Below are positions 8,439 through 60,389 of a stretch of DNA of 64,000 nucleotides, piece after piece. The DNA comes from Anaerolineae bacterium (GTDB taxonomy: Bacteria > Chloroflexota > Anaerolineae > Epilineales > JAHCIE01): NCBI GenBank assembly GCA_034431435.1, contig DAOUDG010000057.1, positions 23,955 to 87,954 of the forward strand, written 5' to 3'. Position numbers and translations under genes: made by a program. The stretch's first letter is position 1, and the number at the start of each line of letters is the position of its first letter. The notes under the pieces are model-generated. The model was not told the origin of the DNA. It did not search any database and was given only the letters and a program-made list of their open reading frames with translations.

Positions 8439-8894
8439 CTAACCCTGGGGCGATTGGGGTGAGTCCTGGCTTTCGCCTGGCATCGGTATCGCCCCCAGCT
8501 GCTGCAGCAGGCCCAGCCCATCCCACAGCGACCACTGCTCGGCGATTCTGTCGCCCTCGATGCGCGACAGGAACATATTCGTCACGTGGATTTCCTTGCC
8601 CGTGGGCGGGATGCCCATGAACTCCCCGCTGTGCCTGGCGCGATGGGTAATGCGGCATGCCGCCATGTCGCCTTCTACGATGAGATGGTCGATTCGCATG
8701 TGGTGATCGGTGAAGGCGTTGTGAAACATGGCGAGAGCCGCCTCGTGCTCGTCGTGCCCAACCAGCTTGCCCAACGTGGCGTCGTGGGAGACGCGGTGTG
8801 CGTGCGAGGTCGTCCGGAACGCCTGGGGATTGCGGGCATGCCACATCTCCTCGTTCTCCCGACGGATGATCGCGCGGACTTTCTCGTGATCCAT
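8439..8894 (-). CDS. Ester cyclase / SnoaL-like protein
   Basis: LIVEGDMAACR, HSGEFMGIPPTGKEI, IAEQWSLWDGLGLLQQLG are typical SnoaL-family motifs. Confidence 0.9.
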   Translation of the reverse strand: MDHEKVRAIIRRENEEMWHARNPQAFRTTSHAHRVSHDATLGKLVGHDEHEAALAMFHNAFTDHHMRIDHLIVEGDMAACRITHRARHSGEFMGIPPTGKEIHVTNMFLSRIEGDRIAEQWSLWDGLGLLQQLGAIPMPGESQDSPQSPQG

Positions 8895-8991
8895 GGGTCC
8901 TCCTTGGGATATAGTGGTGGTGGCAGACGTGCCTTATTGTACGCGGTAGCTAACCTTTATGCAACGTGCCCGCGCGCGTGGCGGTGCGTCG

Positions 8992-9897
8992 TCAGGCGGA
9001 GCCGCGCGCCAGGGCGACGGCCGCCCGGACGCCTGGCGCCACCTCCTCCGCGAATACCCTTATCTGACGCATATGGTCCCTGGCAGGCCAGAAGATAAAG
9101 GTGTCCATCCCCAACTCGACGGCGCAGCGTGTCAGTTCCTCGATCCAGTAGCTAACTGGCCCCACCAGAAACTGCTGGGGCGGCTCAGCCGTAATCTGCC
9201 CCATCACGTTGTACGCGCGCCGGATGTCCGCCGGCTGACGGCCGGCAGCCAGGGCGGCCTGGTTGATGCGCTGCTGCATCTCTGGCAAACGCTCCAGCGG
9301 CGTGTAGCTGGAGCTGGGTACCCATCCGTCTGCCAGCCGTCCCGTCAGCGCCAGCATCTTGGGGCCATACGAACCTAGCCAGATCCCCATGGGATGCGCC
9401 GGGCGCGGCCCAGGGTGCGCGCCGCGTACCTGGTAATACTGGCCGGTGAAGCGCACGGAGGGCGCGCCGCTCCAAAAGGCCCGGATGATCTGGATGGCCT
9501 CCTCCAACGCTCCGACGGCCTCAGCGCGGCTCCGTGATGGCCCACCCATGGCTGCGATACCCTCCCAGAAGGCGCCCGCGCCGAGGCCGAGTTCTACCCG
9601 TCCGCCACTCAACACATCCAGTGAGGCCGCGGCCTTGGCGAGCATGGCGGGTGGTCGCAGCGGCAGGTTGGCGACGTTGGGGAAGAACCGCACACGCTCC
9701 GTCGCCTGGGCGAGGGTCGCCATCAGCGTCCAGGTATCGAGGAACTTGGCGTTGTAAGGGTGATCCTGGATGCCGATGAACTCCAGGCCAGCCTCATCGA
9801 TGGCCTGCGCCAGGCGGATTGGCCAGGTGGGATCGGCCGCGGTGGGATCCACATTCCCGCCGAACTCGATCGGCCGCCGCAGATCGTACATAACCAT
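8992..9897 (-). CDS. LLM class flavin-dependent oxidoreductase
   Basis: IQDHPY, DTWTLMATLAQATERV, RPPAMLAKAAASLDVLSGGRVELGLGAG, GRLADGW. Starts 15 bp after the arsM stop. Confidence 0.9.
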   Translation of the reverse strand: MVMYDLRRPIEFGGNVDPTAADPTWPIRLAQAIDEAGLEFIGIQDHPYNAKFLDTWTLMATLAQATERVRFFPNVANLPLRPPAMLAKAAASLDVLSGGRVELGLGAGAFWEGIAAMGGPSRSRAEAVGALEEAIQIIRAFWSGAPSVRFTGQYYQVRGAHPGPRPAHPMGIWLGSYGPKMLALTGRLADGWVPSSSYTPLERLPEMQQRINQAALAAGRQPADIRRAYNVMGQITAEPPQQFLVGPVSYWIEELTRCAVELGMDTFIFWPARDHMRQIRVFAEEVAPGVRAAVALARGSA

Positions 9898-10715: not shown

Positions 10716-11153
10716 TCACGCATGACTGGTCTGGGCGACAAACTCGCCCAGCCAGATATCGATCTCGTCCCGTACCCGTCGAAACACGGCCAGTCGCGCC
10801 TCCGTGGCGCCGACAGCCGCGGCGGGGTCCTCGAAGCTGTGATGCAGCCGCTCGCCCGCGCCGGGGAACACAGGGCACGCCTCGTTGGCGTTGTCGCAGA
10901 CGGTGATGACATAGTCGAAGGGCTGATGGACGAACTCATGGATGCCCTTGCTGCGCGCCGTCGAGATGTCGATACCGCGCTCGGCCATGACTGCCACCGC
11001 CAGTGGGTTGAGGCCCTTCGGCTCCGTCCCCGCGCTGTAGACCTCGTACCCATCGCCGCCCCGCGCCCGCAGCAGCGCCTCCGCCATCTGTGACCGCGCC
11101 GAGTTCCCCGTGCACAGAATCAGCGCCCGTATTGGCCCATCAACCCTTGCCAT
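10716..11153 (-). CDS. arsC: Thioredoxin-type arsenate reductase (LMW-PTP fold)
   Basis: P-loop CTGNSARSQMAE, TVCD...CPVFPG, FEDPA. Start at ATG 11153 after ggag. Confidence 0.92.
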   Translation of the reverse strand: MARVDGPIRALILCTGNSARSQMAEALLRARGGDGYEVYSAGTEPKGLNPLAVAVMAERGIDISTARSKGIHEFVHQPFDYVITVCDNANEACPVFPGAGERLHHSFEDPAAAVGATEARLAVFRRVRDEIDIWLGEFVAQTSHA

Positions 11154-11189
11154 GCTGTCTCCATTGTCTACTCCCCAATCTCCGATCTC

Positions 11190-11379
11190 AGTCTCCATCA
11201 CCAGCGCCGACACTGGGCGCACCGACGTGAACTCCACCGACGCCAGCGCGGCGGTCGCTAGGGCCTCGCGCGCAACGGGGCGGAAGCCGAGGCGGGGAAG
11301 CATTCGCCAGCGGGGGCGGTGAGTAGATACACGCTCAGTGATGAGAGCCTTCACCCTGCGCAGGACGACATCCGAGCGA
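11190..11379 (-). pseudogene. Remnant of an ArsN2-like arsenic-resistance N-acetyltransferase (C-terminal half, 1-bp frameshift)
   Basis: One frame reads SVYLLTAPAGECFP and the adjacent frame continues RLGFRPVAREALATAALASVEFTSVRPVSALVM. Adding one base to the G4 run at 11294-11297 joins them into the YLLT...FPRLGF...SVEF...P.SA.VM pattern I recall for ArsN2. No N-terminal half is present. Confidence 0.6.
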
Positions 11380-11381
11380 GG

Positions 11382-11702
11382 TTAGCAGCACTCGCCAGCC
11401 GCCTCAAGCTCTTGGGTCAATGCTGTCACCTGCTCGCGCAGCCAGCGCAGCGTATCCTCATTGAGGCAGTAGCAACGCGCTGGCCCATCGACCGTGCCCG
11501 CCACGATGCCCGCCTCGCGCAGCACCTTGAGATGCTCGCTGACCGTCGATTGCGCCAGATTGCTGAAGACCACCAGATCGCCGGTGATGCACTGGGGATG
11601 CTCGGCCATATAGCGCACCATTTGCATCCGCAGCGGGTTGCCCAGGGCGCGAAAGAGGGCGACCAGACGCTCGCCATCGTCGGGGAGGGGAACCGTCTTC
11701 AT
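11382..11702 (-). CDS. arsR: ArsR/SmtB family repressor
   Basis: FRALGNPLRMQMV, LAQSTVSEHLKVLREAGIV, RCYC, C-terminal CC. First gene of the ars operon. Confidence 0.92.
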   Translation of the reverse strand: MKTVPLPDDGERLVALFRALGNPLRMQMVRYMAEHPQCITGDLVVFSNLAQSTVSEHLKVLREAGIVAGTVDGPARCYCLNEDTLRWLREQVTALTQELEAAGECC

Positions 11703-11713
11703 TGCCTGACTCC

Positions 11714-11765
11714 ATCGTAAAAAACCGATTATCGTCATTTTACGATAGAAGCGTGTGGTTGTCAA
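11714..11765 (-). promoter_or_regulatory. ars promoter TTGACA-N17-TAAAAT overlapped by an inverted-repeat operator
   Basis: Minus-strand -35 at 11765-11760 and -10 at 11742-11737. The inverted repeat atcgtaaaa (11714-11722) / ttttacgat (11738-11746) covers the -10. Confidence 0.75.
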
Positions 11766-11792
11766 GGGGGAGAAGGGGGCAATTGGGGGAAT

Positions 11793-12878
11793 CTACAGAA
11801 TCAGCATGGCGTCGCCGAAGCTGAAGAAGCGGTAGTCGCCCGCGATGGCGGCGTGGTAGGCGTCCCACATCAACTCGCGACCGGTGAAGGCCGCGACGAG
11901 CATCAGCAGCGTCGAGCGGGGCAGGTGAAAGTTAGTGATCATAGTGTCCACGGCGCGGAAGGTGAAGCCCGGCGTGATGAACAGCCGTGTCCAGCCGCTG
12001 TAGGCGGCGATAGGCGTGCGCGCGACGGGCGCGGTCAGCGCCGTGAAGTCGCGCGGCTGACCGGGGTCGATGTTGGCAGCGGCCAGCGCCGCCGACTCCA
12101 GCACTCGTACCGCCGTTGTGCCGACTGCCACCACTCGCCCACCGCCCGACCAGGTGGCGTTGATGCGCGCGGCGGTCGCTGCGCCCAACTCGGCCCACTC
12201 ACTGTGCATCACGTGCTGGCGAGCGTCCTCGACCTCGACGGGGCGGAATGTGTCCAGGCCCACGTGCAGCGTCACGAAGGCGAAGTCGACGCCTTGCTCG
12301 GCTAGGCGCGCAATGAGGGGCGGCGTGAAGTGCAGGCCCGCCGTAGGCGCGGCCGCCGAGCCGACGACGCGGTTGTAGACTGTCTGGTAGCGTTCGGGGT
12401 CAGCCAGCTTCGCGTGGATATAGGGGGGCAGGGGCGTCTCGCCCAGACGGTCGAGGAGTGGCTCGATGGGCGCAGCGAAGCGCACCAGTCGCCCGCCTGC
12501 CTCGGTCTCGCCAACGATCTCGGCCGTCGCCGCGCCGTCGCCCAGGACAAGCTGCGTCCCCGGCCGCAGGCGGTGGCCGCGCGCCAGCGTCTCCCACGTC
12601 ACGCCGTCCAGGGGCTTGAGGAGCAGAAGCTCCACCTGGCCGCCGCTGGCCTTGCGGGCGTGGAGGCGAGCCGGCCGCACGCGGCTGTCGTTGGCGACGA
12701 GCAGGTCGCCGGGCCGCAGGAAGGCGGGCAGGTCACGGAAGGTATGGTGGCTGAGCGCGCGGGTGGCGCGATCCACCACCAGCAGCCGTGACGAGTCGCG
12801 TGGCTCGATCGGCGTCTGGGCGATACGCTCGGTGGGCAGGTGGTAGTCGAAGTCGTGGGTGGCGAGGGGCGTAGTCAT
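11793..12878 (-). CDS. queA: tRNA preQ1(34) S-adenosylmethionine ribosyltransferase-isomerase
   Basis: DFDYHLP..RIAQTP, PLPPYI, YQTVY, GSAAAPTAGLHFT, LHVGLDTF, TNFHLPRSTLLML, YRFFSFGDAMLI. Confidence 0.97.
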   Translation of the reverse strand: MTTPLATHDFDYHLPTERIAQTPIEPRDSSRLLVVDRATRALSHHTFRDLPAFLRPGDLLVANDSRVRPARLHARKASGGQVELLLLKPLDGVTWETLARGHRLRPGTQLVLGDGAATAEIVGETEAGGRLVRFAAPIEPLLDRLGETPLPPYIHAKLADPERYQTVYNRVVGSAAAPTAGLHFTPPLIARLAEQGVDFAFVTLHVGLDTFRPVEVEDARQHVMHSEWAELGAATAARINATWSGGGRVVAVGTTAVRVLESAALAAANIDPGQPRDFTALTAPVARTPIAAYSGWTRLFITPGFTFRAVDTMITNFHLPRSTLLMLVAAFTGRELMWDAYHAAIAGDYRFFSFGDAMLIL

Positions 12879-17213: not shown

Positions 17214-18272
17214 ATGCAGATCCGAGACTTCGATCCCAAGGGCGCGGGCGACGACGAGATTCGCGCCATCCATGCCTTGCAGAGTCGCCTGCACGCCGAG
17301 ACCTGGCCCGAGGACAATCCGCTGCCCGTGGAGGACACTCTGAGCTGGCTGCGTCACATGCCGGCGATGATCGACTTCCGCGGCTGGGCCGTGTGGGACG
17401 ACGCTGGCGAGAGCGTCATCGCCCGCGCCGACTTTGAGACGTGGCGCACCGACGAGAACCAGCATCTGGGCGAGTTCTCCATCGGCGTCCTGCCGGCGAG
17501 TCGCCGGCAGGGACTCGCAACGCAGCTACTTGGCCCGATCGTCGACGAGGCGAAGGCCCGCAAGCGCCGCCTGCTCCACACTTGGGCCGATGCGGAGAAC
17601 GAGGGGGCGACCGGCTTTCTCACCTGGCTGGGGGCGCGGCCCGGCCTGACGATGACGAACAACCAGCTCGTCCTGGCCGAGGTTGACCGCGTGTTGATGC
17701 GCCAGTGGATCGAGCGCGGCGAGGCGAAGGCGCAGGGCTTTCGGCTGGAGCTCATCGACGGCCCGTACCCTGAGGCCGATATTCAGGCCATCTCGGACCT
17801 GTTCCGCGTGATGAACGACGCGCCGCGTGGCAGCCTGGACGTCGAGGACGAGGAGTACAAGGTCGAGCACATACGCCAGTGGGAAGGGACCATGATCAAG
17901 CGCGGCCTGGAACGCTGGCGCATGCAGGCGCGTCACATCGAGAGCGGCGAGCTGGCCGGCTTCACCGAGGTCGTGTGGAACCCGTACCGCCCCGACATCC
18001 TCCAGCAGTGGGGTACGGGCGTCAAGCCCACGTTCCGCGGCCTGGGCCTGGGTCGCTGGCTGAAGGCAGCTATGTTGGAGCAGGTGCTGCGCGAGCGTCC
18101 TAGCGTGCGCGTCATCCGCACCGGCAACGCCACCAGCAACGGGCCGATGCTGAAGATTAACTTCGACATGGGCTTCAAGCCCTACAAGGCCTTCCAGGTC
18201 TGGGAGGTCGAGACCGAGCAGGTGGCCCGTGTCCTGACCGAGAAGGAGGCCGTGCCCGCCCTTGCCTGGTAA
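17214..18272 (+). CDS. Tandem-domain GNAT acetyltransferase, paralog 2 of 5
   Basis: NQHL, VLPASRRQGLA, NDAPRGSL, TGVKPTFRGLGLGRWLKAAML, RTGNATSNGPMLKINFDMGF. Confidence 0.9.
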   Translation: MQIRDFDPKGAGDDEIRAIHALQSRLHAETWPEDNPLPVEDTLSWLRHMPAMIDFRGWAVWDDAGESVIARADFETWRTDENQHLGEFSIGVLPASRRQGLATQLLGPIVDEAKARKRRLLHTWADAENEGATGFLTWLGARPGLTMTNNQLVLAEVDRVLMRQWIERGEAKAQGFRLELIDGPYPEADIQAISDLFRVMNDAPRGSLDVEDEEYKVEHIRQWEGTMIKRGLERWRMQARHIESGELAGFTEVVWNPYRPDILQQWGTGVKPTFRGLGLGRWLKAAMLEQVLRERPSVRVIRTGNATSNGPMLKINFDMGFKPYKAFQVWEVETEQVARVLTEKEAVPALAW

Positions 18273-18287
18273 GGCGGGCTTTCCATA

Positions 18288-18319
18288 GGGGAGGGGGAAC
18301 GGTCGCGTTCCCCCTCCCC
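18288..18319. repeat. Perfect 13-bp GC-rich hairpin between GNAT paralogs 2 and 3
   Basis: ggggagggggaac (18288-18300) / gttccccctcccc (18307-18319). Confidence 0.55.
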
Positions 18320-18333
18320 CAGGAGTTTATACC

Positions 18334-19410
18334 ATGTATCTGCGCCCCTTCGACTTGAAGACCGCGACGATGAAGGATTGGGAAGCCCTGCACCGCTTCG
18401 ACGCCACCATTCACGCCGAGTTCTGGGGCGACCGCCCGCATCCGCCTTTCGAGCAGTTCGTGCGTGACACCCGTCACGAAGCGCCTTTGTGGGAGACCCG
18501 CCGCTATGCCATGTGGAACGGTCAGGGCGATATCGTTGGCCTGGCCGCCATGTGGATCAGCCGCACGGGCCGCAACAAGCATCTGATGGAAGCCACCATC
18601 GACGTGCTGCCGGAGTGGCGGCGGCAGGGTATCGCCCGCTGGTTGCTGGCCCCCATCGTTACCGTGGCCTGCCGCCACGGCATCCGCCTGCTGAAGGGCG
18701 TCACGAGCAGCGCGTCGCCGGCCGGCGAGGCGTTCATGCGCCGGCTGGGCGGCAAACCGGCCATGACCACATCGACCAACGTTCTGGCCATCGCCGACGT
18801 CGATCGCGCCCTGCTGCGCCGCTGGATCGAGACGGGCGAGACAAGCGCGGCCGACTTCGCCCTCGAAGAGTTGGTTGGCCCGTACCCCGACGACTGGCTG
18901 GGCAGCATCTCGGCTCTGTACGACGCGGCCAACGACGCCCCGCGCGGTGACCTGGACGCCGAGGACGAGCGACGCTCGCCGGAGTTGCTGCGCGAGATGG
19001 AGGCGGTCTCTCTGGCGCGGGGCGACGAGCGCTGGACGATGATCGCGCGCCATCGGCCGACTGGTGAGATCGCCGGGTTCACGGAGACGCACTGGAACGC
19101 GGTCCAGCCGGAGGGCGTGAGCCAGGCGTGGACCGTTGTCCTACCGCGCTACCGAGGCCACGGCCTGGGCCGCTGGCTGAAGGCGGCCATGCTGGAGAAG
19201 GTGTTGCGCCAGCGCCTAACGGTGCAGTGGATCAGCACCGGCAACGCTGACAGTAACGCGCCCATGCTGCGCATCAACTACGAGTTGGGCTTCAAGCCGT
19301 ATCGGTCCTGGATATTCTGGCAGCTTGAGGTAGGGCAGGCGCAGGCCTACCTGGCCGAGAAGGCGGCCGAGCCGCTGGCCCTCGAAGCGCCCGACTCCGT
19401 CCCCGCCTAG
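18334..19410 (+). CDS. Tandem-domain GNAT acetyltransferase, paralog 3 of 5
   Basis: NKHL, VLPEWRRQGIA, NDAPRGDL, VLPRYRGHGLGRWLKAAML, TGNADSNAPMLRINYELGF. Confidence 0.9.
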   Translation: MYLRPFDLKTATMKDWEALHRFDATIHAEFWGDRPHPPFEQFVRDTRHEAPLWETRRYAMWNGQGDIVGLAAMWISRTGRNKHLMEATIDVLPEWRRQGIARWLLAPIVTVACRHGIRLLKGVTSSASPAGEAFMRRLGGKPAMTTSTNVLAIADVDRALLRRWIETGETSAADFALEELVGPYPDDWLGSISALYDAANDAPRGDLDAEDERRSPELLREMEAVSLARGDERWTMIARHRPTGEIAGFTETHWNAVQPEGVSQAWTVVLPRYRGHGLGRWLKAAMLEKVLRQRLTVQWISTGNADSNAPMLRINYELGFKPYRSWIFWQLEVGQAQAYLAEKAAEPLALEAPDSVPA

Positions 19411-19427
19411 CCCGCACAGGAGTTGCG

Positions 19428-20492
19428 ATGCACATCAAATCTTTTGATCCGCAGACGGCGAGCGACACCGAGTGGAGCGCGCTGAACGTCTTCGACAATC
19501 GGAACGAGGCTGAGTTGTGGCCCGATGACCCGCCGGTGTCTGTGACCCGCACCCGTCGCCGCGCGCTGCGCCCCGAGTTTCTGGTGCAGGAGTATTGGGC
19601 GGCGTGGAACGAGGGTGAGACGGAGGTCATGGGCCTGGCGGATGCTCGCTACTGGCTTGCCGAGCACAACCAGCATCTGGTCATGTTTTCCCTGGCTGTC
19701 TTGCCCGCGTTTCGCTGCCAGGGTATTGGTCGCCAGTTCCTGGCCTGCATCGTGGACTTTGCACGCCGCGCCGGTCGCACCGACTTGCTGGACTGGGCCG
19801 CGACAGGGGCGGCGGGCGCGACGGGCTTCGCCCGCGCCGTGGGCGCGAAGGAAGGTATTCTCTCCAGCACCAACCAGCTCGACCTGCGCGACCTGGACCC
19901 GGCGTTGATGCGGGCGTGGCTGGCCCGCGCGCCAGAGCGGGCGTCGGGCTTCGAACTCCGCTACTGGGATGATGGCTACCCCGAAGAGGCCTACGCCGAG
20001 ATGGTCCACGTGCTGGACGCCATGAACGACGCGCCCCGCGATGAGATCTTCGAGGATGAGAAGTGGAACGAGGCGCAGTTGCGCGCTTACGACACGCTGA
20101 TTAAGAGCCAGGGCACGCTACGCTGGACGGCCTATGTTCGCGAGAAGAGCAGCGGCCGCATTGCCGGCTACTCCGAGGTGTTCTGGAATGCGGATCGCCC
20201 AACCATCCTGCATCAAGGCGATACCGGCGTGCTGCCCGCCTACCGTAATCGCGGCCTGGGCCGCTGGCTGAAGGCGGCCATGATTCTGCGCATCCTGGCT
20301 GAGCGGCCTGACGTGCGGTTTGTCCGCACCGGCAACGCCGATTCCAACGTGCCGATGTTGGGTATCAACTATACGATGGGCTTCCAGCCCTATCGGTCGT
20401 GGACGGGCTGGCAGTTGACCGTTGACCAGGCCGAACAATACCTTCTGTCGCGGGGTGTCAGCGTGGATGCGCTCGCACCCCTGGAGGCGTGA
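19428..20492 (+). CDS. Tandem-domain GNAT acetyltransferase, paralog 4 of 5
   Basis: NQHL, VLPAFRCQGIG, NDAPRD, TGVLPAYRNRGLGRWLKAAMI, RTGNADSNVPMLGINYTMGF. Confidence 0.9.
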   Translation: MHIKSFDPQTASDTEWSALNVFDNRNEAELWPDDPPVSVTRTRRRALRPEFLVQEYWAAWNEGETEVMGLADARYWLAEHNQHLVMFSLAVLPAFRCQGIGRQFLACIVDFARRAGRTDLLDWAATGAAGATGFARAVGAKEGILSSTNQLDLRDLDPALMRAWLARAPERASGFELRYWDDGYPEEAYAEMVHVLDAMNDAPRDEIFEDEKWNEAQLRAYDTLIKSQGTLRWTAYVREKSSGRIAGYSEVFWNADRPTILHQGDTGVLPAYRNRGLGRWLKAAMILRILAERPDVRFVRTGNADSNVPMLGINYTMGFQPYRSWTGWQLTVDQAEQYLLSRGVSVDALAPLEA

Positions 20493-21535
20493 TGCGCATC
20501 CTGCCCTTCGACCCCATCACGGCGAGCGCCCACGAATGGGAAGCTGCCTTCGCGCTGGAGCGGCAGAACGCGGCCGAGTTCAACCCCGATGATACCCCAC
20601 TGACCCTGGAGCAGCTTCGCGACCGCTGGCTCAACGAGCCGTCCTTTACTCGCATCCAGCGCTGGCTGGCCTGGGATGACGGGGGCGAGACGGTCTGGGC
20701 GCGCGCCCTTCTGAGACACCACACCACCGCCGAGAATCAGCACCTCGCCGACATGTGGGTCTACGTCGCGCCGGAGTGGCGGCGGCAAGGCCTCGGCGGT
20801 GCGATGCTGCAACCCATCGTCGACGGCGCGCAGGCCGCCGACCGCGGCCTGCTGCGAACCTGGACCCAGAGCATCGCGCCAGCCGGCGAGGCCTTCATGC
20901 GCGTCCTCGGCGCGCACAAGGCGCTGGAGACCTCGGAGAACGTGTTGGACATGGCCGACCTGGACCTGGACCTGATGCGCAAATGGGTCCAGCGCGCCCA
21001 GGAGCGAGCAGCGGGCTACCGGCTGGAGTTTGTCGAGGGCTGGTTCCCTGAGGCGGACCTGCCCGACATCGCCGCTGTCGTCGGCTCCCTCAACGATGCG
21101 CCACGCGGCGAGTTGCAGGTGGAGGACGATGTTCACACGGCGGACACCGTGCGCGCCTGGGAAGCGTCGATTCTGGGGCGGGGTGACAACATCTGGAGCG
21201 TGTTCGCCCGCGAGCCGCAGGTGGGGCGCGTCGTGGGTTGGACGGAGGTTGTCATCGACCCCCACAACCCCCATCGCCTCTACCAGGGCGGGACCGGTGT
21301 GCTGCGCGCGCATCGTAACCTGGGGTTGGGTCGCTGGCTGAAGGCGGCCATGGCCCTCAAGGTGGCAGAGCAGTTGCCCCAGGTCAGGTCGATTCGCACC
21401 GGCAACGCCGACGCCAACGCGCCCATGCTCAGCATCAACACCCGGATGGGCTTCCGCCCCGCCATCGCCGAGGCCGTCTGGCAGCTCGACCGCGAGCAGG
21501 CGCGAGCTTATCTGGCCTCGGCTCGAATGGCCTAG
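20489..21535 (+). CDS. Tandem-domain GNAT acetyltransferase, paralog 5 of 5
   Basis: NQHL, VAPEWRRQGLG, NDAPRGEL, TGVLRAHRNLGLGRWLKAAMA, RTGNADANAPMLSINTRMGF. GTGA overlap with paralog 4. Confidence 0.9.
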   Translation: MMRILPFDPITASAHEWEAAFALERQNAAEFNPDDTPLTLEQLRDRWLNEPSFTRIQRWLAWDDGGETVWARALLRHHTTAENQHLADMWVYVAPEWRRQGLGGAMLQPIVDGAQAADRGLLRTWTQSIAPAGEAFMRVLGAHKALETSENVLDMADLDLDLMRKWVQRAQERAAGYRLEFVEGWFPEADLPDIAAVVGSLNDAPRGELQVEDDVHTADTVRAWEASILGRGDNIWSVFAREPQVGRVVGWTEVVIDPHNPHRLYQGGTGVLRAHRNLGLGRWLKAAMALKVAEQLPQVRSIRTGNADANAPMLSINTRMGFRPAIAEAVWQLDREQARAYLASARMA

Positions 21536-21579
21536 CGAGTCACTTACCAGACAGACAGTGACGGTGGGCGGGGAACTGT

Positions 21580-21744
21580 CAGGGTTCTTTCAAAGTCGTA
21601 GACGGTGCAGAGAGTTCGCCGTGAAACAGGGGCATTCATAGCCGTAGTGGGACGGCAGGAGCTTCCATACGTACTCGACGGATCTGCGCTTCGGCTACTG
21701 CGGGGTGCTGACGAGCACGCTAGCCCGACTTTGAAAGAACCCTG
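21580..21744. mobile_element. 165-bp MITE with 19-bp perfect terminal inverted repeats and a 9-bp target-site duplication (ISAs1-like CAGGG ends)
   Basis: IRL cagggttctttcaaagtcg 21580-21598, IRR cgactttgaaagaaccctg 21726-21744, direct repeat gggaactgt at 21571-21579 and 21745-21753. No transposase inside. Confidence 0.88.
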
Positions 21745-21860
21745 GGGAACTGTGGCCTTTCTTGTGCTTCTTGGAAATCTGGTGCAATATGAACTTGACT
21801 CGGCGCGTTCGTACCTCAATCGATATTGAGGTGGGGGTTGACGTGCTTTGGAGGTAGGAG

Positions 21861-23375
21861 ATGTTGACGCGACTCAGGGTGAGCGGGTTTAAGAACCTAG
21901 TGGATGTTGACGTGCGCTTCGGCCCCTTCACTTGCATTGCTGGCGCAAATGGTGTCGGCAAATCCAACCTGTTTGACGCTATCATGTTTCTTAGCGCTCT
22001 GGCGGATCGACCATTCCTTGATGCCGCACTCTCAGTGCGAGCCGAGGGTGGGAGATATGGTGATGTCCGGAGCCTCTTCACCCGGATCGGAGATCAGTAC
22101 GTCAACGAGATGTCGTTCGAGGCGGAAATGATCGTGCCTGCAAAGGGATTTGACGATCTTTCCCAGCTAGCCAGGGCAAGCACAACCTTTCTCAAGTATT
22201 CCCTTACCCTCCGCTATAGACAAGACGACGAGTTGAGACCGATCGAAGCACTAGAGTTAGCACGTGAAGACCTCGGCTACATCAGCATGGGGGAAGCAAC
22301 AAAGCACCTTCTGTTCAAACCTAGCACGGCCTGGCGCAAGGGAGCCCTGATTGGGCGACGCACATCCCCCTTCATCTCTACCTCAGACCGCGAGCCGCAC
22401 AATATTGAAGTTCATCAGGAAGGTAGACAAGGGCGAAATCGTCGGCTACTCGCCAAGACGCTCCCGCGAACAGTTCTTTCTACTACGAACGCTGCAGAAA
22501 ACCCTACTGCGCTACTCGCACGGCGGGAGCTTCAGTCATGGCGCTTGTTGCAACTCGAACCATCAGCTCTCCGCACTCCCGATGAGCTACGCAATCCACC
22601 AGGACTAGGCACCGATGGGTCCCACCTTCCTGCTACAGTCTATCATCTTGCTCGTGCCTCTACGGCAGTCACGGAAGCAGATGCCGATGTATCGACTCTT
22701 GACATGTATGGTCAGCTAGCCAATCGTCTCGCCGACCTTATCGACGATGTAAGGGAAGTCTGGGTAGATCGAGATGAACAACGTCGCCTACTTACGCTCT
22801 ATCTACGCGATCGAGATGCCACTGCTCATCCTGCACGAGCCTTATCTGATGGGACACTGCGCTTCTTAGCCTTAGCCGTGTTGGAACTCGACCCAGCAGC
22901 ACGTGGGGTCCTCTGTCTAGAAGAACCTGAGAACGGCATTCACCCAGCACGCATTGCTGCCATGCTTCGCCTGCTACAGGATATAGCTACTGACATCAGC
23001 AGACCGGTAGGTTCCGACAACCCTCTTCGCCAGGTCATTATTAACACGCACTCGCCCGCGGTCGTTAGCCAGATTCCTGACGATAGCCTTCTCCTAGCGG
23101 AACTGAGGGAAGTGATTATGCACGGCCAGCGCTTCAAAGGAGTCCACTTCAGCCATCTCAAGGGAACCTGGCGTGATACCGGAGATGATGCCGACGTGGT
23201 GGCTCGCGGAAGACTACTCGATTACCTGAACCCGGTGGAGGACTCTGGCTCGTTCACGCAAGCAGGTTATGGCCGCACACCGGCACGCGGGTACCATGTG
23301 CCTCGCGGCCGCCGTATTGTGGATCGAGAAGATCTGCAACCCTATCTGCTCAATCTTCCCAGAATCGCGGAATGA
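21861..23375 (+). CDS. ABC-type (AAA_21/AAA_15-like) ATPase
   Basis: Walker A GANGVGKSN, signature LSDGTLRFLAL, Walker B/D-loop LEEPENGIHP, H-loop NTHSP. GC is lower than the flanks. Confidence 0.88.
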   Translation: MLTRLRVSGFKNLVDVDVRFGPFTCIAGANGVGKSNLFDAIMFLSALADRPFLDAALSVRAEGGRYGDVRSLFTRIGDQYVNEMSFEAEMIVPAKGFDDLSQLARASTTFLKYSLTLRYRQDDELRPIEALELAREDLGYISMGEATKHLLFKPSTAWRKGALIGRRTSPFISTSDREPHNIEVHQEGRQGRNRRLLAKTLPRTVLSTTNAAENPTALLARRELQSWRLLQLEPSALRTPDELRNPPGLGTDGSHLPATVYHLARASTAVTEADADVSTLDMYGQLANRLADLIDDVREVWVDRDEQRRLLTLYLRDRDATAHPARALSDGTLRFLALAVLELDPAARGVLCLEEPENGIHPARIAAMLRLLQDIATDISRPVGSDNPLRQVIINTHSPAVVSQIPDDSLLLAELREVIMHGQRFKGVHFSHLKGTWRDTGDDADVVARGRLLDYLNPVEDSGSFTQAGYGRTPARGYHVPRGRRIVDREDLQPYLLNLPRIAE

Positions 23376-24025
23376 GCATGCTTCGCTATTCGCTCGTGTC
23401 AGATGGTCCCTCAGATCGGGTCTTGGTGCCACTTTTGACCTGGCTCCTGAGAGATATAGGTGTGAATATATCCATTCAGGCTCAGCATGCCGACATGAGG
23501 CATCTTCCTCGCCCTCCCCGCTCATTGTCTGATCGTATCGCTACCGCTGTCGATCTATATCCATGCGATCTTCTGTTCGTGCACCGCGATGCGGAACGGG
23601 AGGATCTGGAGCATCGCCGTATTGAGATACGGGCAGCGGTAGCTGAAGCACGTCGCCAAGGTGCAATTTCCTCCGTGGTCTGCGTCATTCCTGTGCGAAT
23701 GCAGGAAGCATGGCTTCTGATCGACGAGGAGGCAATTCGCCATGCTGCCGGCAATCGGTATGGCAGGATGCCCCTCAATATGCCACGGATTAGCGGCCTT
23801 GAGACCATTCCTGACCCGAAGGCGGAGTTGTACTCGTTGCTCCGGCAGGCGAGTGGTCTGCAAGGTAGAAGGCTGGACTCGTTCCGAGTGTCGGCCAGTG
23901 CTTATCGCGTAGCGGACGGGATCACTGACTACGCTCCACTGCGCTCGCTGACGGCCTTTCGAGAGCTTGAAGAGGAACTGAGAACAACCCTGGGAGAATT
24001 GGGACTTGTTGGGCTGGCTCATTAA
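23372..24025 (+). CDS. DUF4276-like / TOPRIM-like partner protein of the ATPase
   Basis: ATGA overlap with the ATPase. It has an N-terminal beta-strand plus acidic motif (LVSDGPSD), FVHRDAE, EAWLL and PDPK, resembling DUF4276 proteins as I recall them. Confidence 0.6.
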   Translation: MSMLRYSLVSDGPSDRVLVPLLTWLLRDIGVNISIQAQHADMRHLPRPPRSLSDRIATAVDLYPCDLLFVHRDAEREDLEHRRIEIRAAVAEARRQGAISSVVCVIPVRMQEAWLLIDEEAIRHAAGNRYGRMPLNMPRISGLETIPDPKAELYSLLRQASGLQGRRLDSFRVSASAYRVADGITDYAPLRSLTAFRELEEELRTTLGELGLVGLAH

Positions 24026-24055
24026 TGGAGGAGATCAAGCGTCCTAATTGGCGTC

Positions 24056-24844
24056 ATGTCAGATCAAGTGGGCGTGATTGACGAGATAGCTCTCATCGAA
24101 GAACTGGCCGCCAACGCCTGGCCCGCCGAGATCAATCAGGCGCTGGACGGCTGGCGGTTGCGCTTCAACGTGGGCGTCACGTCGCGGGCTAACTCGGTGT
24201 GGGCCAACGCCGACGGCGGACGCGTGCCGCTGGCCGAGCGGCTCGACCTGGTGGAGGACTTCTATACGCGCCACGGCATCCCGCCGTGTTATCAAGTCAC
24301 GCCCGCCGCTCAGCCGGCCGACCTGGACGCCGTGCTGGCCGACCGTGGCTACACCACTCACTCGTTCACGCTGGTTGAGGCGGCGGCGTTGGCCCCGGTC
24401 GCGGCTGCGAGCCTGCCCCGCGCGGATGTGCGCGTCGATCTCGCCGACAGGCTCAGCGACGACTGGCTGGCGGTGTATCAGGCCGTGGAGGCTGGCAGCG
24501 ATCACGCGCTCGCCGCCCGGCAAGGCATCTTGCGCCGCATCGGGCCGCGCGCTGGCTACGCCCTGGCGCGGCTGGATGGCATCGCCGTAGGTGTGGCCCT
24601 GGGTGTCGTGGAGCGCGGCTGGCTGGGCGTCTTCTGCATGGGAACTCTCGCGGCCGCCCGGCGGCGAGGTGTGGGCGCGTCGGTCTTGGGCGCACTGGCT
24701 GCCTGGGCGCTTGGGGAGGGCGCGACCCAGGCCTACCTTCAGGTGGTGGCCGCCAACGCGGTGGCCCGCGCGCTGTACGAGTCCGTCGGCTTCGCGCCGC
24801 TGTACGAGTATCACTATCGCCAGCGGCGCGCGCGCTCGCCTTGA
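24056..24844 (+). CDS. GNAT family N-acetyltransferase
   Basis: LDGWRLRF..GVTSRANSV, ARRRGVG, AYLQVVAANAVARALYESVGF. Confidence 0.88.
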   Translation: MSDQVGVIDEIALIEELAANAWPAEINQALDGWRLRFNVGVTSRANSVWANADGGRVPLAERLDLVEDFYTRHGIPPCYQVTPAAQPADLDAVLADRGYTTHSFTLVEAAALAPVAAASLPRADVRVDLADRLSDDWLAVYQAVEAGSDHALAARQGILRRIGPRAGYALARLDGIAVGVALGVVERGWLGVFCMGTLAAARRRGVGASVLGALAAWALGEGATQAYLQVVAANAVARALYESVGFAPLYEYHYRQRRARSP

Positions 24845-24901: not shown

Positions 24902-25627
24902 ATGTTGGACAAGACTGGGGCCGTGCCTATCTACTCGCAGGTCAAGGAATTTGTCCGCGAGAAGATCGAGGCCGGGGTGTGGCCGCCGGGGACTCTTATC
25001 CCCTCCGAGCGCGACTTCTGCGAACAGTTCAGCATCAGCCGCATGACCGTGCGCCAGGCGCTAGGTGAGCTGGTGAGTGAGGGATTGGTGGTGCGGGAGA
25101 AGGGCAAGGGCACATTTGTCGCCTTGCCCCGCCTGCGCCAGCGTCTGACACGCCTCAGCGGCTTCTCCGACGACATGCACGCCCGTGGCAAGCAGCCCGG
25201 CGCCCGTCTCCTCTCCATCCGCCGCGTGCCCGCCAAACCTTCCGCCGCCCGCGCCCTGGGCATATTGCCCCACGAAGATATCGTGGTCATTGAGCGCCTC
25301 CGCCTGGCCGACAGTGAGCCACTGGCTGTCGAGGCCAGTCATCTGCACTTCGTCGGCATGGAAGGCCTGATGGGGCGCGACCATATCGCCTCCCTCTACC
25401 AGGTCCTGAGTGACGAGTTCGGTGTCCAGCCGACCCGCGCCGAGCAGGAGATCGAGGCCTCAGGGGCCACGGCGCGGGAGGAGGATCTGCTACGCCTGGA
25501 ACGTGGCGCACCGGTCCTCCGCACGCGGCGAACCACCTACGATGCCCACGGCCGCTCCTTCGAGTACGCCGAGGCGGTCTACCGGGGCGACCGCTATACC
25601 TTCTTCGCCGAGCTGTCGAATGTCTGA
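24902..25627 (+). CDS. GntR/HutC family regulator (NagR/DasR-like, UTRA domain)
   Basis: PIYSQV, IPSERDFCEQFSISRMTVRQAL, KGKGTFV, YRGDRY. Heads an amino-sugar operon. Confidence 0.9.
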   Translation: MLDKTGAVPIYSQVKEFVREKIEAGVWPPGTLIPSERDFCEQFSISRMTVRQALGELVSEGLVVREKGKGTFVALPRLRQRLTRLSGFSDDMHARGKQPGARLLSIRRVPAKPSAARALGILPHEDIVVIERLRLADSEPLAVEASHLHFVGMEGLMGRDHIASLYQVLSDEFGVQPTRAEQEIEASGATAREEDLLRLERGAPVLRTRRTTYDAHGRSFEYAEAVYRGDRYTFFAELSNV

Positions 25628-27289
25628 GCCGCTGCAACATCCAATCCCTCGGCTGGCCGATCTAAGCCTCGAGCAGAAGGTAGGCCAGGTCATCATGGGC
25701 GGCTTTGCGGACCCCGTCGCCGATAGTGCGACGCTGGCCGCTGTCGCTGATGGTAGCCTGGGCAATGTCATCCTGTTCGCCCGCAATTGCCCCGACGCCG
25801 AGACTGTGGCAAGCCTGACGCGCGCGCTGCAAGGCGCCGCGCCCATCCCCTTACTCATCGCCGCCGACCAGGAAGGCGGCCTCGTCACGCGGCTCAATGT
25901 TGGCGCGACCCTCACGCCGGGCGCGATGGCGCTCGGCGCGACGGGCGACACGGCGCTGGCCGAGCAGGTAGCCGCGATGATGGCCGACGAGTTGCGCGGC
26001 GTCGGCATCAACGCCTGCCTCGCCCCGGTCGCCGATGTGAACGCCAACCCGGCGAACCCGGTCATTGGCGTGCGCTCCTTCGGCGAGGACCCGGACCAGG
26101 TGGCGCGCTTCGTGGCAGCGACGACGCGAGGGCTGCAACACCAGGGTGTCGCCGCCTGCGCCAAGCATTTCCCTGGCCACGGCGACACGGGCGTCGACTC
26201 GCACCTGGCGCTGCCGCGCATCGACCGCAGCCTGGACGACCTGGAGCGCGTGGACCTGGTTCCCTTCCGGGCGGCCATTGCCGCAGGTGTGCGCCTGGTG
26301 ATGACGACGCACATCCAGTTCCCCGCCCTCGACCCTGACCGCCCCTCAACATTGAGTCGCGCCATCCTGACGGGCTTGCTGCGCGAGCGGCTTGGCTTCC
26401 AGGGCGTGGTGATTACCGACTCGATGGAGATGCGGGGCATTACCCAGGATCGCACCCCGGCCGAGGCGTGCCTGGCGGCCTTTGCCGCCGGGGCTGACAT
26501 CGTGTGTCCGTCCCACGAGCGCACGGACCAGGCGGGGGCATACGCGCTCATCCTGGCGGCAGTTCGGGAGGGGCGCGTGCCCCTGGCGCGGCTGGACGAG
26601 GCCGTGGCGCGGGTGCTGGCCCTCAAGCAGTGGCTGCTCAGCCAGGGCAGCCTGCGCGCGGATGCGGCCGCCTTTGCCCGCCTGGACACACCGGGCCATC
26701 ACGAGGTGGCCGCCATCGCAGCCGGGCGAGCCATTACCCTGGTACGACACGAGGGGCCGTGGCCGCCATCGCTAGCGGGTCGGGTCGCCGTTGTCGAGTT
26801 CGGGCAGCCACGCTTCACGGGAGCCGAAGAGGGCCAGGGGCGATTGGGCGCGCTGGCCTGGCGGCTGGCGGCGGCCCTGGGACAGCGCGCCGAGGTTCGT
26901 TCTGTCGTGGCCGGGGTGACGCCTGGCGAGGAGGAAGCTGCACTGTGCCTGGCGGCGGCCCAGGCGGCGGATTCGCTGGTGGTCGGCACGCGCAGCGCGA
27001 CGCTGTATGCGGCCCAGGCTGAAGTGGTGAAGCAGCTTCTGGCTGTTGGAAAGCCTACGGTCGTCATCGCGCTACGGACACCCTATGACCTGGCCGCTTT
27101 CCCCGAGGCGGCTACCTATCTGGCAACCTACGGCGACGCCATGCCGTCGCTGGCGGCGGTCGCCGCGGCCCTGGTGGGTACGGAGATGCCGCCCGGCGCG
27201 TTGCCGGTCACCATCCCCGGCCTGTACCCGCGTGGCTTTTCTATCCATCACCATCAAGTATCATCGAGCGATGAGGAGCTACGTCGATT

Positions 27290-27293
<4 letters not shown>
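25620..27293 (+). CDS. nagZ: GH3 beta-N-acetylglucosaminidase
   Basis: ADQEGG, KHFPGHGDTGVDSH, ITDSMEM. ATG 25620 overlaps the gntR stop. Confidence 0.92.
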
Positions 27294-28465
<1,172 letters not shown>

Positions 28466-56367: not shown

Positions 56368-57369
56368 ATGACCCCCGACCGTCGTCGTAAGCTCGCCGTG
56401 GTTGCCATCGGCGGCAATAGTCTGATCACGGATAAGACGCACCAGACAGTTCCCGACCAGTACGCGGCGGCGGCCGAGACGTGCGTTCACGTCGCCGAGA
56501 TGATTCAAGCGGGGTGGCAGGTCGTGGTGACCCACGGCAACGGCCCCCAGGTGGGCTTTATTCTGCGTCGTTCGGAGCTGTCCCGCCACGAACTGCACGA
56601 GGTTCCGCTCGACGTGTGCGGCGCAGATACCCAGGGCGCGATTGGCTATATGTTGCAGCAATGCCTGTACAACGAGTTCCTGCAGCGCGGCCTGCCGGAT
56701 AAGCCGGTGACGGTCGTGACGCAGGTCGAGGTGGACCGCGCCGACCCGGCCTTCCAACACCCTAGCAAGCCCATTGGCTCGTTCATGACGGAGGCTGAGG
56801 CAGCGACACGACGCGCCGAGGGCTGGGACATGGTGGAGGACGCAGGGCGCGGTTTCCGCCGTGTTGTCGCCTCGCCCATGCCCAGGCGCATCGTCGAGAT
56901 CGAGGCCATCCGGGCCTTGCTGGCGGACGGATTCACTCTGATTGCGGCGGGCGGTGGCGGTATCCCCGTCATTGCCGAGGCGGATGGGCGACTGTGGGGC
57001 GTGGCGGCCGTCATCGACAAGGACCGTGCCTCGGCGCAACTGGCGAACCAGATTCAGGCCGACTTGCTCCTCATCTCGACCGCCGTCGAGCGGGTGGCTA
57101 TCAACTACCGCAAGCCGAGCCAGCAGGAACTGGCAACCATGACGGTGAGCGAGGCCGAGCGCTACATGGCCGACGGCCAGTTCCCCGAGGGCAGCATGGG
57201 GCCGAAGATACAGGCCGCGTTGGATTTTCTAGCGCGGGGCGGCGACGCCGCGCTGATTACGTCGCCGGAGGCCATCAGCCGCGCGCTGCGCGGCGAGACG
57301 GGGACGTGGATCGTGCCGGACGGGGCGGACCCGTCGCGGTTCTTTGCGGCAGTGGAGGGCACGGCGTGA
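56368..57369 (+). CDS. arcC: Carbamate kinase (YqeA/ArcC)
   Basis: VVAIGGNSL, THGNGPQVG, KPIGSF, RRVVASP, GGGGIPV, AVIDKD, GSMGPKI. Confidence 0.95.
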   Translation: MTPDRRRKLAVVAIGGNSLITDKTHQTVPDQYAAAAETCVHVAEMIQAGWQVVVTHGNGPQVGFILRRSELSRHELHEVPLDVCGADTQGAIGYMLQQCLYNEFLQRGLPDKPVTVVTQVEVDRADPAFQHPSKPIGSFMTEAEAATRRAEGWDMVEDAGRGFRRVVASPMPRRIVEIEAIRALLADGFTLIAAGGGGIPVIAEADGRLWGVAAVIDKDRASAQLANQIQADLLLISTAVERVAINYRKPSQQELATMTVSEAERYMADGQFPEGSMGPKIQAALDFLARGGDAALITSPEAISRALRGETGTWIVPDGADPSRFFAAVEGTA

Positions 57370-60300: not shown

Positions 60301-60389
60301 AACTGGGCGTCGCTATCAGCCTGATGACGCTGGTGGCCCTGGCGGTCGCGGCGTGGTGGCTGTGGCGCGGGGCGCGGCGGGAGGCGTAG
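57366..60389 (+). CDS. YfhO family large membrane protein (GT-C-like glycosyltransferase candidate)
   Basis: LWNPNLIGGFPLFAD, many TM segments, RAPARF, and C-terminal LVLADTAYPGWRATVDG...FRAVYLPPGAHRVTFEYAP. GTG overlaps the arcC stop. Confidence 0.82.
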   Translation: MTQDVAGQRQQSVAADRVAVNGDLWGVLAVIATALALFAPLWATGRVWIDGDLGDFYWPTMQAVFGALRDGQSPLWNPNLIGGFPLFADGSVGTLFPLNWVLLVAPHSLMLIPFLRTLVAALGMYAFVRVVGIGPVGATVAGLVFALNSFSVSHFSHIDLNNGTALLPWLLLAIERSLHASSWRRQALWLLAAGVSYGLVWLSLHPMAPLMILPVYAGWALYRALTYSGPRPTTDDEGPQTRGTSASPAARSRWLWALAALTVPVVVALGLAAAQLVPMAELGSLSPRQAAGARFNASFSLPPYDLIGLVWPTFFHSAPGGPRWGLWNLETLTYVGTLPFVLAMAAVAAWPRQRHVGFFVVLALLALWVAVAVYAPFSPQPWLYSLPGYNVLRAPARFFFVVGFAGAYLAAVGMDWLVARQWDTAPVRRVRWLLVGLAALAMSIPLVGAAIVLFVNGAPGQAERAIWALYLNLPHGTPLRYEDVVYAINQKLRIGNLEMWKAVGLLLLSVGLVGAWLRGGLSRRAFAAAAAVLTAVDLLLLAGYYVTPVPLARVVEPRPAAEFVQSQRAANVAASLNGDRILHARSVDPPMIDLPFGVPDFNGQSSLNMARPAAYTSALFSREGALADRAAVRWLMVPNNLADVRQRLNGVAFDRERPLAIVDAATPANQRTFQVAPQPARELRLLLALSQAVNVPQGATVAEVVVRGADGASRAFPIRAGIEASEWAYERPDVRAAVQHAKVTPALTWNQVDETGQRFDRFLSYVELPLDSDGGGLLIPSRVDVRAVAPRTETLLFGATLVGDASPAAHSLARSDLAVYAPVYWDDDVRLFERATALPRARLVGQGVTYAARWQALERLTQAEDMADRVTLEGTPPAEAAPLLVAGPADARAPLPLAPDPATLGTVQLLEDTPTRVTLAAETTAPAFLVLADTAYPGWRATVDGRPTDILIADYTFRAVYLPPGAHRVTFEYAPRSVQLGVAISLMTLVALAVAAWWLWRGARREA

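Follow-up and report, generated by a model that had tools for sequence, protein, structure and literature searches.

HEC-01 (Hma-embedded candidate 01) was catalogued as a pair consisting of an ATP-binding cassette (ABC) ATPase and a TOPRIM-like partner within Hma systems (Payne et al., bioRxiv 10.1101/2024.01.29.577857), and the PARIS paper names 'AbiL and MADS3-4' when listing other ABC-ATPase/TOPRIM systems that are separate from PARIS (PMC11464382). This study concerns a gene pair of the same general kind in a stretch of 64,000 nucleotides (the window) from contig DAOUDG010000057.1 of an Anaerolineae bacterium. The pair lies on a low-GC segment of about 2.57 kb (21524..24092) between two GNAT genes. 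Gene A (21861..23375, + strand) encodes a 504-residue ABC-type ATPase (AAA_21/AAA_15) of type HEC-01A, as judged from Pfam, PADLOC, NCBIfam, and motif conservation; gene B (23372..24025, + strand) encodes a 217-residue protein of type HEC-01B, on the fringe of DUF4276 and a putative TOPRIM-like nuclease effector, as judged from Pfam, PADLOC, and a structural model. The locus as a whole is read here as a horizontally acquired, stand-alone HEC-01 sensor-effector module with a probable function in defence, a reading given a probability of about 0.6. Its first two parts, the family assignment and the insertion, are hardly in doubt when taken alone.

In cold seeps, HEC-01 was one of the 12 commonest system types, and a HEC-01 cluster picked at random gave Escherichia coli B protection from one or more of T7, T5, and T4 (Nat Commun 2026, PMC12881386). 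In PARIS, from which the sensor-ATPase/TOPRIM-effector logic proposed here is borrowed, the AriB effector is a DUF4435 protein of 35 kDa, and AriA releases AriB to cleave tRNA (PMC11464382). Some NsnC proteins of Menshen carry DUF4276 or RloB effector domains, both of which have been assigned to the Toprim superfamily, and Mad4 of MADS is a DUF4276 homolog (Menshen study, PMC12065111).

Family assignment and comparison with described systems

In PADLOC, protein A matched the HEC-01A model PDLC04184 at 6.3e-98 (326.8 bits, residues 1-409 of 504), and protein B matched the HEC-01B model PDLC04210 at 9.9e-29 (residues 1-212, profile positions 1-214 of 217); within PADLOC-DB, B matched HEC-01B models only. 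Both models were matched near full length, the order and orientation are alike (ABC ATPase, then small TOPRIM-like protein), and the genes are adjacent and co-oriented. The locus differs from the described arrangement in that the pair is solitary between the GNAT genes, and not embedded in Hma, restriction-modification, or BREX systems, and in that the subfamily represented here carries D...DxE instead of E...DxD. On its profile matches, the pair is a stand-alone HEC-01, or Mad3/Mad4-like, pair, a fresh example of a catalogued candidate family and no new system. An initial annotation of the window had proposed a candidate anti-phage module made up of an ABC ATPase and a DUF4276-related protein. 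Pfam agreed with this composition (AAA_21 at 3.7e-27 and AAA_15 at 1.3e-14 for A, a sub-threshold DUF4276 match at 9.8e-6 for B), and the HEC-01 matches of both proteins place the pair in a candidate anti-phage family.

Among the described systems, MADS comes near in sequence: the best NCBIfam match of A was MAD3 (NF047739, 1.2e-38), and PADLOC mad3 matched at 1.1e-22. The NCBIfam score of 133.4 bits falls below the cutoff of 420 for MAD3, so that A is no equivalog, and no methyltransferase or other mad gene was found within 10 kb on each side of the pair. The relation of Mad4 to DUF4276 is paralleled by the position of B on the DUF4276 fringe. Matches to two further systems were far below that to HEC-01A. 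For AbiL, A matched AbiLi at 3.8e-16, and B gave no AbiLii match; for Menshen, A matched NsnB at 3.2e-13, and neither a third Menshen gene nor an RloB match in B was found. MANTIS, described in a preprint, was also considered and set aside as not relevant to the A/B pair.

The initial annotation had further called the module PARIS-like, a label that, as a statement of membership, did not survive. The two systems have in common the layout of an ABC ATPase with a small nuclease effector (putative here), and two PADLOC models named 'AriA' matched A, one at 3e-27 (chiefly residues 274-402) and the other at 3.4e-16 (chiefly residues 324-402). These models, however, have 304 and 373 positions and in this resemble generic AAA_21/AAA_15 domains, they cover A partially, with their best stretches only in its C-terminal ATPase half, and they match far more weakly than HEC-01A. 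The AriA chain (8UX9) was missing among the PDB matches of the A profile at E ≤ 0.01. Protein B gave no AriB match (PADLOC, E ≤ 1) and no DUF4435 match (Pfam, E ≤ 10, 52 members), and between the approximately 35-kDa AriB and the 217 residues of B, on the DUF4276 fringe, there was no sequence signal. Finally, phages or satellites are frequent carriers of PARIS, whereas the HEC-01-type family found here was absent from 2.9 million IMG/VR contigs and from PHROGs. That the pair could be a true AriA/AriB system is scarcely credible; by sequence comparison, PARIS resembles the pair in architecture but is not its family.

Protein A has the full motif set of an ABC-type ATPase, with Walker A GANGVGKS at residues 28-35, the signature LSDGT at 328-332, Walker B LCLEEPE at 351-357, and the H-loop NTHSP at 395-399; K34, S329, E354, E355, and H397 were invariant in 54 of 54 loci. 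Walker B (22908-22931, A residues 350-357) reads EEPE and not the usual DEPE in all 54 members, as well as in a distant Burkholderia homolog; P2 Old has DEPE. The C-terminal 95 residues or so are conserved (W437, R438, Y455, P458, R489) and matched no known domain.

The best PDB sequence matches of A were to the OLD family (P2 Old, Ts and Bp OLD, GajA, retron Eco8). With the A-family profile, Ts OLD (6p74) matched at 7.3e-7, and UvrA, the retron Eco8 OLD nuclease, SMC, Rad50, and PtuA were also recovered, all over just 45 residues or so around the P-loop or signature region; an hhalign comparison of the A family with P2 Old gave a probability of 87% for the P-loop segment only. In OLD proteins, ATPase and TOPRIM are fused in one polypeptide, whereas here they would be encoded by two separate open reading frames (ORFs). 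A common form is seen in the first motif: EGKTE for Old, EGTSD for the Burkholderia B protein, and DGPSD for B of the window. B gave no significant profile match to the TOPRIM of Old.

The same short matches are what would favor a housekeeping function in repairing or maintaining DNA, in the manner of RecF/RecR or SbcCD, where an SMC-like ABC ATPase has a TOPRIM or nuclease partner: the N-terminus of A resembles the P-loop segments of RecF, SMC, Rad50, and UvrA, and RecR is a TOPRIM protein. Likeness to the repair ATPases is, however, limited to those 45 or so residues around the P-loop, the composition of A and B is foreign, and the pair is absent from the same site in one close relative and replaced by other cargo in a second (see below), all of which makes a repair function highly improbable.

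A horizontally acquired segment between two GNAT genes

The segment stands out in composition. Among 247 sliding windows of 2.5 kb, that at 21501-24000 had the lowest GC of the 64 kb (0.557, against a mean of 0.659 and a standard deviation of 0.027; z = -3.76), and across approximately 21500-24050 the GC content drops from about 0.67 to 0.54-0.58. After correction for base composition, the tetranucleotide distance of the same stretch ranked fifth of the 247 (z = +2.29). At third codon positions (GC3), gene A had 0.533 and gene B 0.555, whereas eight neighboring genes had 0.81-0.89; GC at first and second positions was alike, so that the contrast sits at synonymous positions. The tetranucleotide CTAG occurs nine times in 2520 nt of the insert (3.57/kb, observed/expected 0.94), compared with 36 times in the remaining 61,480 nt of the window (0.59/kb, observed/expected 0.19, i.e., host avoidance). 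The low GC and the frequent CTAG had both been noticed in the initial annotation, from which these counts do not depart, and its description of two coupled genes between GNAT genes also holds, since the stop codon of gene A and the start codon of gene B share ATGA (a 4-nt overlap), both ORFs are intact, and the flanks are GNAT4 and GNAT5.

GNAT4 (20489..21535, + strand) is the last of four tandem double-GNAT paralogues of about 350 residues, and GNAT5 (24056..24844, + strand) is an Rv0428c_C/GNAT protein of 262 residues; both were assigned by Pfam and by their orthologs and are host DNA, GNAT5 from about 24093 on. When GNAT5 was used to scan GTDB genomes, two close relatives were identified, both Anaerolineae/Anaerolineales metagenome-assembled genomes (MAGs), here L007 and L008, the GNAT4 orthologs of which show 84-89% identity. 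In L007 (CAZJJF010000018.1), the GNAT4 and GNAT5 orthologs (84% and 85% identity) abut with a stop/start overlap of ATGA and nothing between them. In L008 (JAHCIE010000033.1, MAG TGS_CHL1), the junction is occupied by a PMT_2-like protein of 436 residues (8525-9835), a multi-pass membrane glycosyltransferase with slightly lower GC (0.59-0.65). Across the three relatives, the GNAT4/GNAT5 junction is therefore either empty, or holds a glycosyltransferase, or holds HEC-01. Since the junction is empty in L007 and carries other cargo in L008, the 2.57-kb A/B segment is an insertion.

The junction alignments locate one breakpoint near 21523/21524 and the other near 24092/24093. From the inserted DNA come the final codons of GNAT4 (21524-21535) as well as the ATG and first 12 or so codons of GNAT5 (24056-24092), so that the ends of both genes at the insert are chimeric, unlike those of L007 and L008. 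The 2.57-kb insert encodes neither an integrase nor a transposase, and no direct repeats flank it. Four independent metagenome assemblies contain this exact locus, with 100% identity across 2.8 kb. The A/B module is foreign DNA that was acquired horizontally, because its composition is foreign, the site is empty in L007 and differently occupied in L008, and its nearest homologs are only 59-65% identical and scattered across phyla. Horizontal acquisition had been proposed from the base composition, and the empty site adds to that argument.

Relatives of the pair are numerous and widely scattered. At least 2845 relatives of B were counted (clusters at 90% identity) and thousands of A, with named homologs in Cyanobacteria, Chloroflexota, Acidobacteriota, deltaproteobacterial (Desulfobacterota-type) lineages, and Armatimonadota; the closest relative beyond the organism's own cluster had 59% identity for B and 65% for A. 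Via protein B, 82 loci were fetched, of which 73 were informative (more than about 220 nt upstream), and 79 A/B pairs were measured. In all 73 informative loci, a homolog of A lies directly 5' of B and is encoded on the same strand. The end of A overlapped the beginning of B by 4 nt in 35 of the 79 pairs and by 8 nt in 16; a distance of 0-22 nt separated them in 26, and the two outliers resemble frameshifted A genes. In one locus (L005, 6485-8000), the A homolog beside P0006 needs two frameshifts for read-through and is either a decaying copy or the product of indel errors in a long-read assembly. Pairwise distances of A and B were correlated (r = 0.851), a value that none of 2000 Mantel permutations reached. 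The two proteins co-diverge and behave as one unit.

The settings of the homologs vary, and some include defence or mobile genes, which favors a role in defence: a methylase, GmrSD_N, HEPN, and a DDE transposase in L096; integrase fragments and an SNF2/DUF3670 helicase in L098; HigB/HTH_3 and HepT/MNT in L099; and an adjoining IS3 transposase in L100, a Burkholderia megaplasmid. B relatives were not found in phage records, save for one marginal match at 6e-4, and only two of 72,556 plasmid records carried the family, both large and non-mobilizable. Some of this picture would suit a selfish module of the toxin-antitoxin (addiction) type, in which B is a nuclease toxin restrained by A and the pair is kept through post-segregational killing, or simply mobile cargo, with no anti-phage benefit in either case. 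The spread across phyla is patchy and the pair moves as a unit, toxin-antitoxin pairs and transposases adjoin some of the loci, one heterologous test of HEC-01 gave no phage protection, and AAA_21 is named by Pfam after a 'putative AbiEii toxin'. Such an explanation is nevertheless unlikely, given that one HEC-01 representative did protect against phage, that the pair is nearly absent from plasmids, where addiction modules thrive, and that A, an ATPase of 504 residues with a conserved extra domain, is far larger than a simple antitoxin.

Protein B and the proposed defence function

Protein B matched DUF4276 (PF14103) at 9.8e-6 and 26.4 bits, under the gathering cutoff of 30.2, in an alignment confined to residues 30-125, outside which lies its N-terminal motif. 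DUF4276 was matched in 50 of 52 B relatives (Pfam, E ≤ 10; best 1.1e-6), and no NCBIfam model matched B. Profile similarity thus marks B as homologous to DUF4276, in a fringe subfamily.

The AlphaFold2 model of B is of high confidence (pLDDT, the score predicted for the local distance difference test, 90.4; predicted template modelling score 0.87). It comprises an alternating alpha/beta core at residues 1-105, followed by an all-helical C-terminal half; the elements of the core by DSSP are b1 (3-9), a1 (13-29), b2 (34-39), a2 (52-62), b3 (67-71), a3 (79-95), and b4 (101-105). The motif SDGPSD occupies residues 10-15, and the acidic residues considered are D11, D15, D73, E75, and E112. Across the 79 pairs, G12, D15, H71, R72, D73, and E112 were invariant, E75 was present in 78, and the pattern D11/D73/E75/E112 in 76. 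In the model, these invariants fall in the loops after strands: S-D11-G12-x-S-D15 after b1, H71-R72-D73-A-E75 after b3, and P107-x-x-M-x-E112-x-W114 after b4.

TOPRIM is defined by a Glu after the first strand and a DxD after the third (PMC12065111), and the acidic motifs of B occupy both positions in the model, with D11 in place of the Glu (76 of 79 pairs) and D73-A-E75 directly after b3. As an acidic residue is kept, the first substitution reads as a variant and not a loss, and DxE in place of DxD likewise reads as a charge-conserving variant. A Burkholderia homolog, 36% identical to B, has GEGTSD and HRDAD, the canonical E...DxD in the same register, and that member matches the identical PADLOC models (HEC-01A at 1.8e-92, HEC-01B at 2.2e-13). 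Relative to it, the subfamily appears from the alignment to have undergone a reciprocal Asp/Glu swap, E...DxD to D...DxE, fixed in 76 of the 79 loci. The initial annotation had pointed to the Asp in SDGPSD, correctly when set against this homolog; the second half of the swap, from Asp to Glu in DxD, is new information.

For HEC-01B in general, a TOPRIM-like character and a conserved metal-binding site in common with Bp OLD have been reported (Payne et al., bioRxiv 10.1101/2024.01.29.577857). With the Menshen study, two papers thus speak for the TOPRIM-like effector that had been suggested for this locus, and the motif positions fit. The structural and profile searches described below did not recover such a fold, so that for B it is putative and rests on the positions of motifs and secondary structure and on published comparisons of other members.

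A mechanism can be proposed on this basis. Proteins A and B would be co-translated and form a complex, in which A would act as an ATP-binding and -hydrolysing sensor and regulator controlling B. The latter would be a divalent-metal-dependent nuclease, its site made up of D11 and D15 (beta1-alpha1 loop), D73-x-E75 (following beta3), and E112 (following beta4). Upon infection or another trigger, A would license or release B to cut nucleic acid, either DNA or tRNA/RNA. The outcome would be defence, through target destruction or abortive infection, on the model of OLD, Gabija, and PARIS.

Several results weigh against this reading. The original HEC-01 representative protected against no phage tested (bioRxiv 10.1101/2024.01.29.577857). 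Foldseek searches of the B model against PDB and BFVD gave nothing at E ≤ 1e-3, and in neither database did the top 50 contain a TOPRIM, OLD, or AriB structure, the top matches being generic Rossmann- or flavodoxin-like folds with template modelling (TM) scores of about 0.2-0.3. The B family profile had no matches among PDB sequences at E ≤ 10, a Pfam scan of 52 B members at E ≤ 10 recovered DUF4276 only and no family of the TOPRIM clan, and when the B family was compared with P2 Old by hhalign, the probability was 0.3%, in the wrong register. The AlphaFold model of A (pLDDT 54.9) was too poor and was left out of the fold search. With regard to context, the pair lies outside any defence island, judged by the neighboring genes within 10 kb on each side, and two homolog loci (L006 and L097) are found amid housekeeping genes, like the locus in the window. 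Lastly, no sigma-70-like promoter was seen on the + strand and no usable terminator, in a simple scan that is uncalibrated for Chloroflexota, and a transposable element in the leader of gene A may have severed the operon from its promoter.

Two further possibilities are raised by these data. The swap, together with the failure of Foldseek to find a TOPRIM fold, could mark a remodelled active site in B, with a metal preference or substrate other than that of OLD-type DNases; by analogy with AriB, for example, the target may be RNA or tRNA. The GNAT4/GNAT5 junction, for its part, shows three cargo states in three relatives, with neither a recombinase nor repeats found, and may therefore serve in Anaerolineae as a hotspot that takes up cargo independently of a recombinase, comparable to those at core genes of enterobacteria. 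Taken jointly, these two proposals are considered quite unlikely.

Leader element, surroundings and significance

The leader, or spacer 5' of gene A, is 325 nt long, and a ribosome-binding site, GGAGG (21850..21854, + strand), lies 6 nt 5' of the ATG of gene A. The leader contains a miniature inverted-repeat transposable element (MITE) of 165 bp (21580..21744), with perfect 19-bp terminal inverted repeats, CAGGGTTCTTTCAAAGTCG, at 21580-21598 and 21726-21744, for which 0 chance matches were expected. On either side is a 9-bp target-site duplication, GGGAACTGT, at 21571..21579 (left) and 21745..21753 (right), and the element ends 116 nt 5' of the gene A start codon. In L007, just 3' of the GNAT5 ortholog, a 1.32-kb insertion sequence (IS; 10797-12117) is bounded by termini identical to those of the MITE (23/23 nt) and encodes a transposase of 395 residues with DDE_Tnp_1_assoc and DDE_Tnp_1 domains, an architecture we take to be ISAs1-like. 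The leader element is identified by sequence as a 165-bp MITE because it is flanked by a target-site duplication and shares its termini with the full-length IS; it derives from an IS family active in the lineage.

The inverted repeat had also been considered as a regulatory RNA or operator, in view of its strong fold (-87 kcal/mol, z = -3.2), an interpretation that was dropped in favor of the MITE, the identity of which explains the fold without a regulatory RNA. The leader had no match in Rfam and no similarity to the sequences 5' of A homologs elsewhere.

The MITE bears on a less favorable view of the locus, namely that A and B form an intact but silent operon, with a promoter disrupted by the MITE or subject to silencing as foreign DNA, and are a passenger awaiting decay. 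The element and its target-site duplication 116 nt before the ATG would fit this, as would the + strand scan without a promoter-like site and the un-ameliorated GC3, which suggests recent arrival. Set against it are the full length of both ORFs with all of their conserved residues present, the identity of the 2.8 kb in four independent assemblies, the fact that the sigma-70 scan is uncalibrated for Chloroflexota, and the ability of MITEs to supply promoters. An inactive passenger is considered very unlikely.

Within 10 kb on each side of the pair are GNAT genes, ABC transporter genes, and genes for GntR, GH3, and NamZ, and no Hma or other multi-gene defence system was found there. On the 3' side of the GNAT genes, at 24902-28465, a GntR/UTRA regulator, a GH3 glycosidase, and a NamZ-type exo-MurNAc-ase (exo-N-acetylmuramidase) gene are followed by sugar ABC transporter genes. 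The cluster is likely to function in cell-wall sugar recycling, and its position beside the insert puts the latter in metabolic, non-defence-island territory. On the 5' side, paralogous double-GNAT genes, no fewer than five or six, form a tandem array (17214-21535 and further upstream, as seen in L001, 858-8158); they encode proteins of about 350 residues, 40-46% identical to one another, are interleaved with ABC-transporter genes, and are kept in L007 and L008. Because it is also present at the empty site, the array appears unrelated to A and B. The strongest tetranucleotide outlier of the window (56994-60389) consists of one ORF for a multi-pass membrane protein of 1131 residues; the region was rejected as notable, as hydrophobic coding explains the bias and no tandem repeats were found.

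HEC-01 belongs to the commonest candidate defence types of environmental genomes, and its record in phage tests is contradictory. The present locus provides a clean natural comparison, with the insertion, the empty site, and an alternative cargo at one and the same junction, and it belongs to a well-populated subfamily in which the ATPase residues and acidic residues are strictly conserved, making precise point mutants possible. The correction of the label also matters, in that expectations specific to PARIS, such as an Ocr trigger, cleavage of tRNA-Lys, and carriage by satellites, should not be transferred to this family untested.

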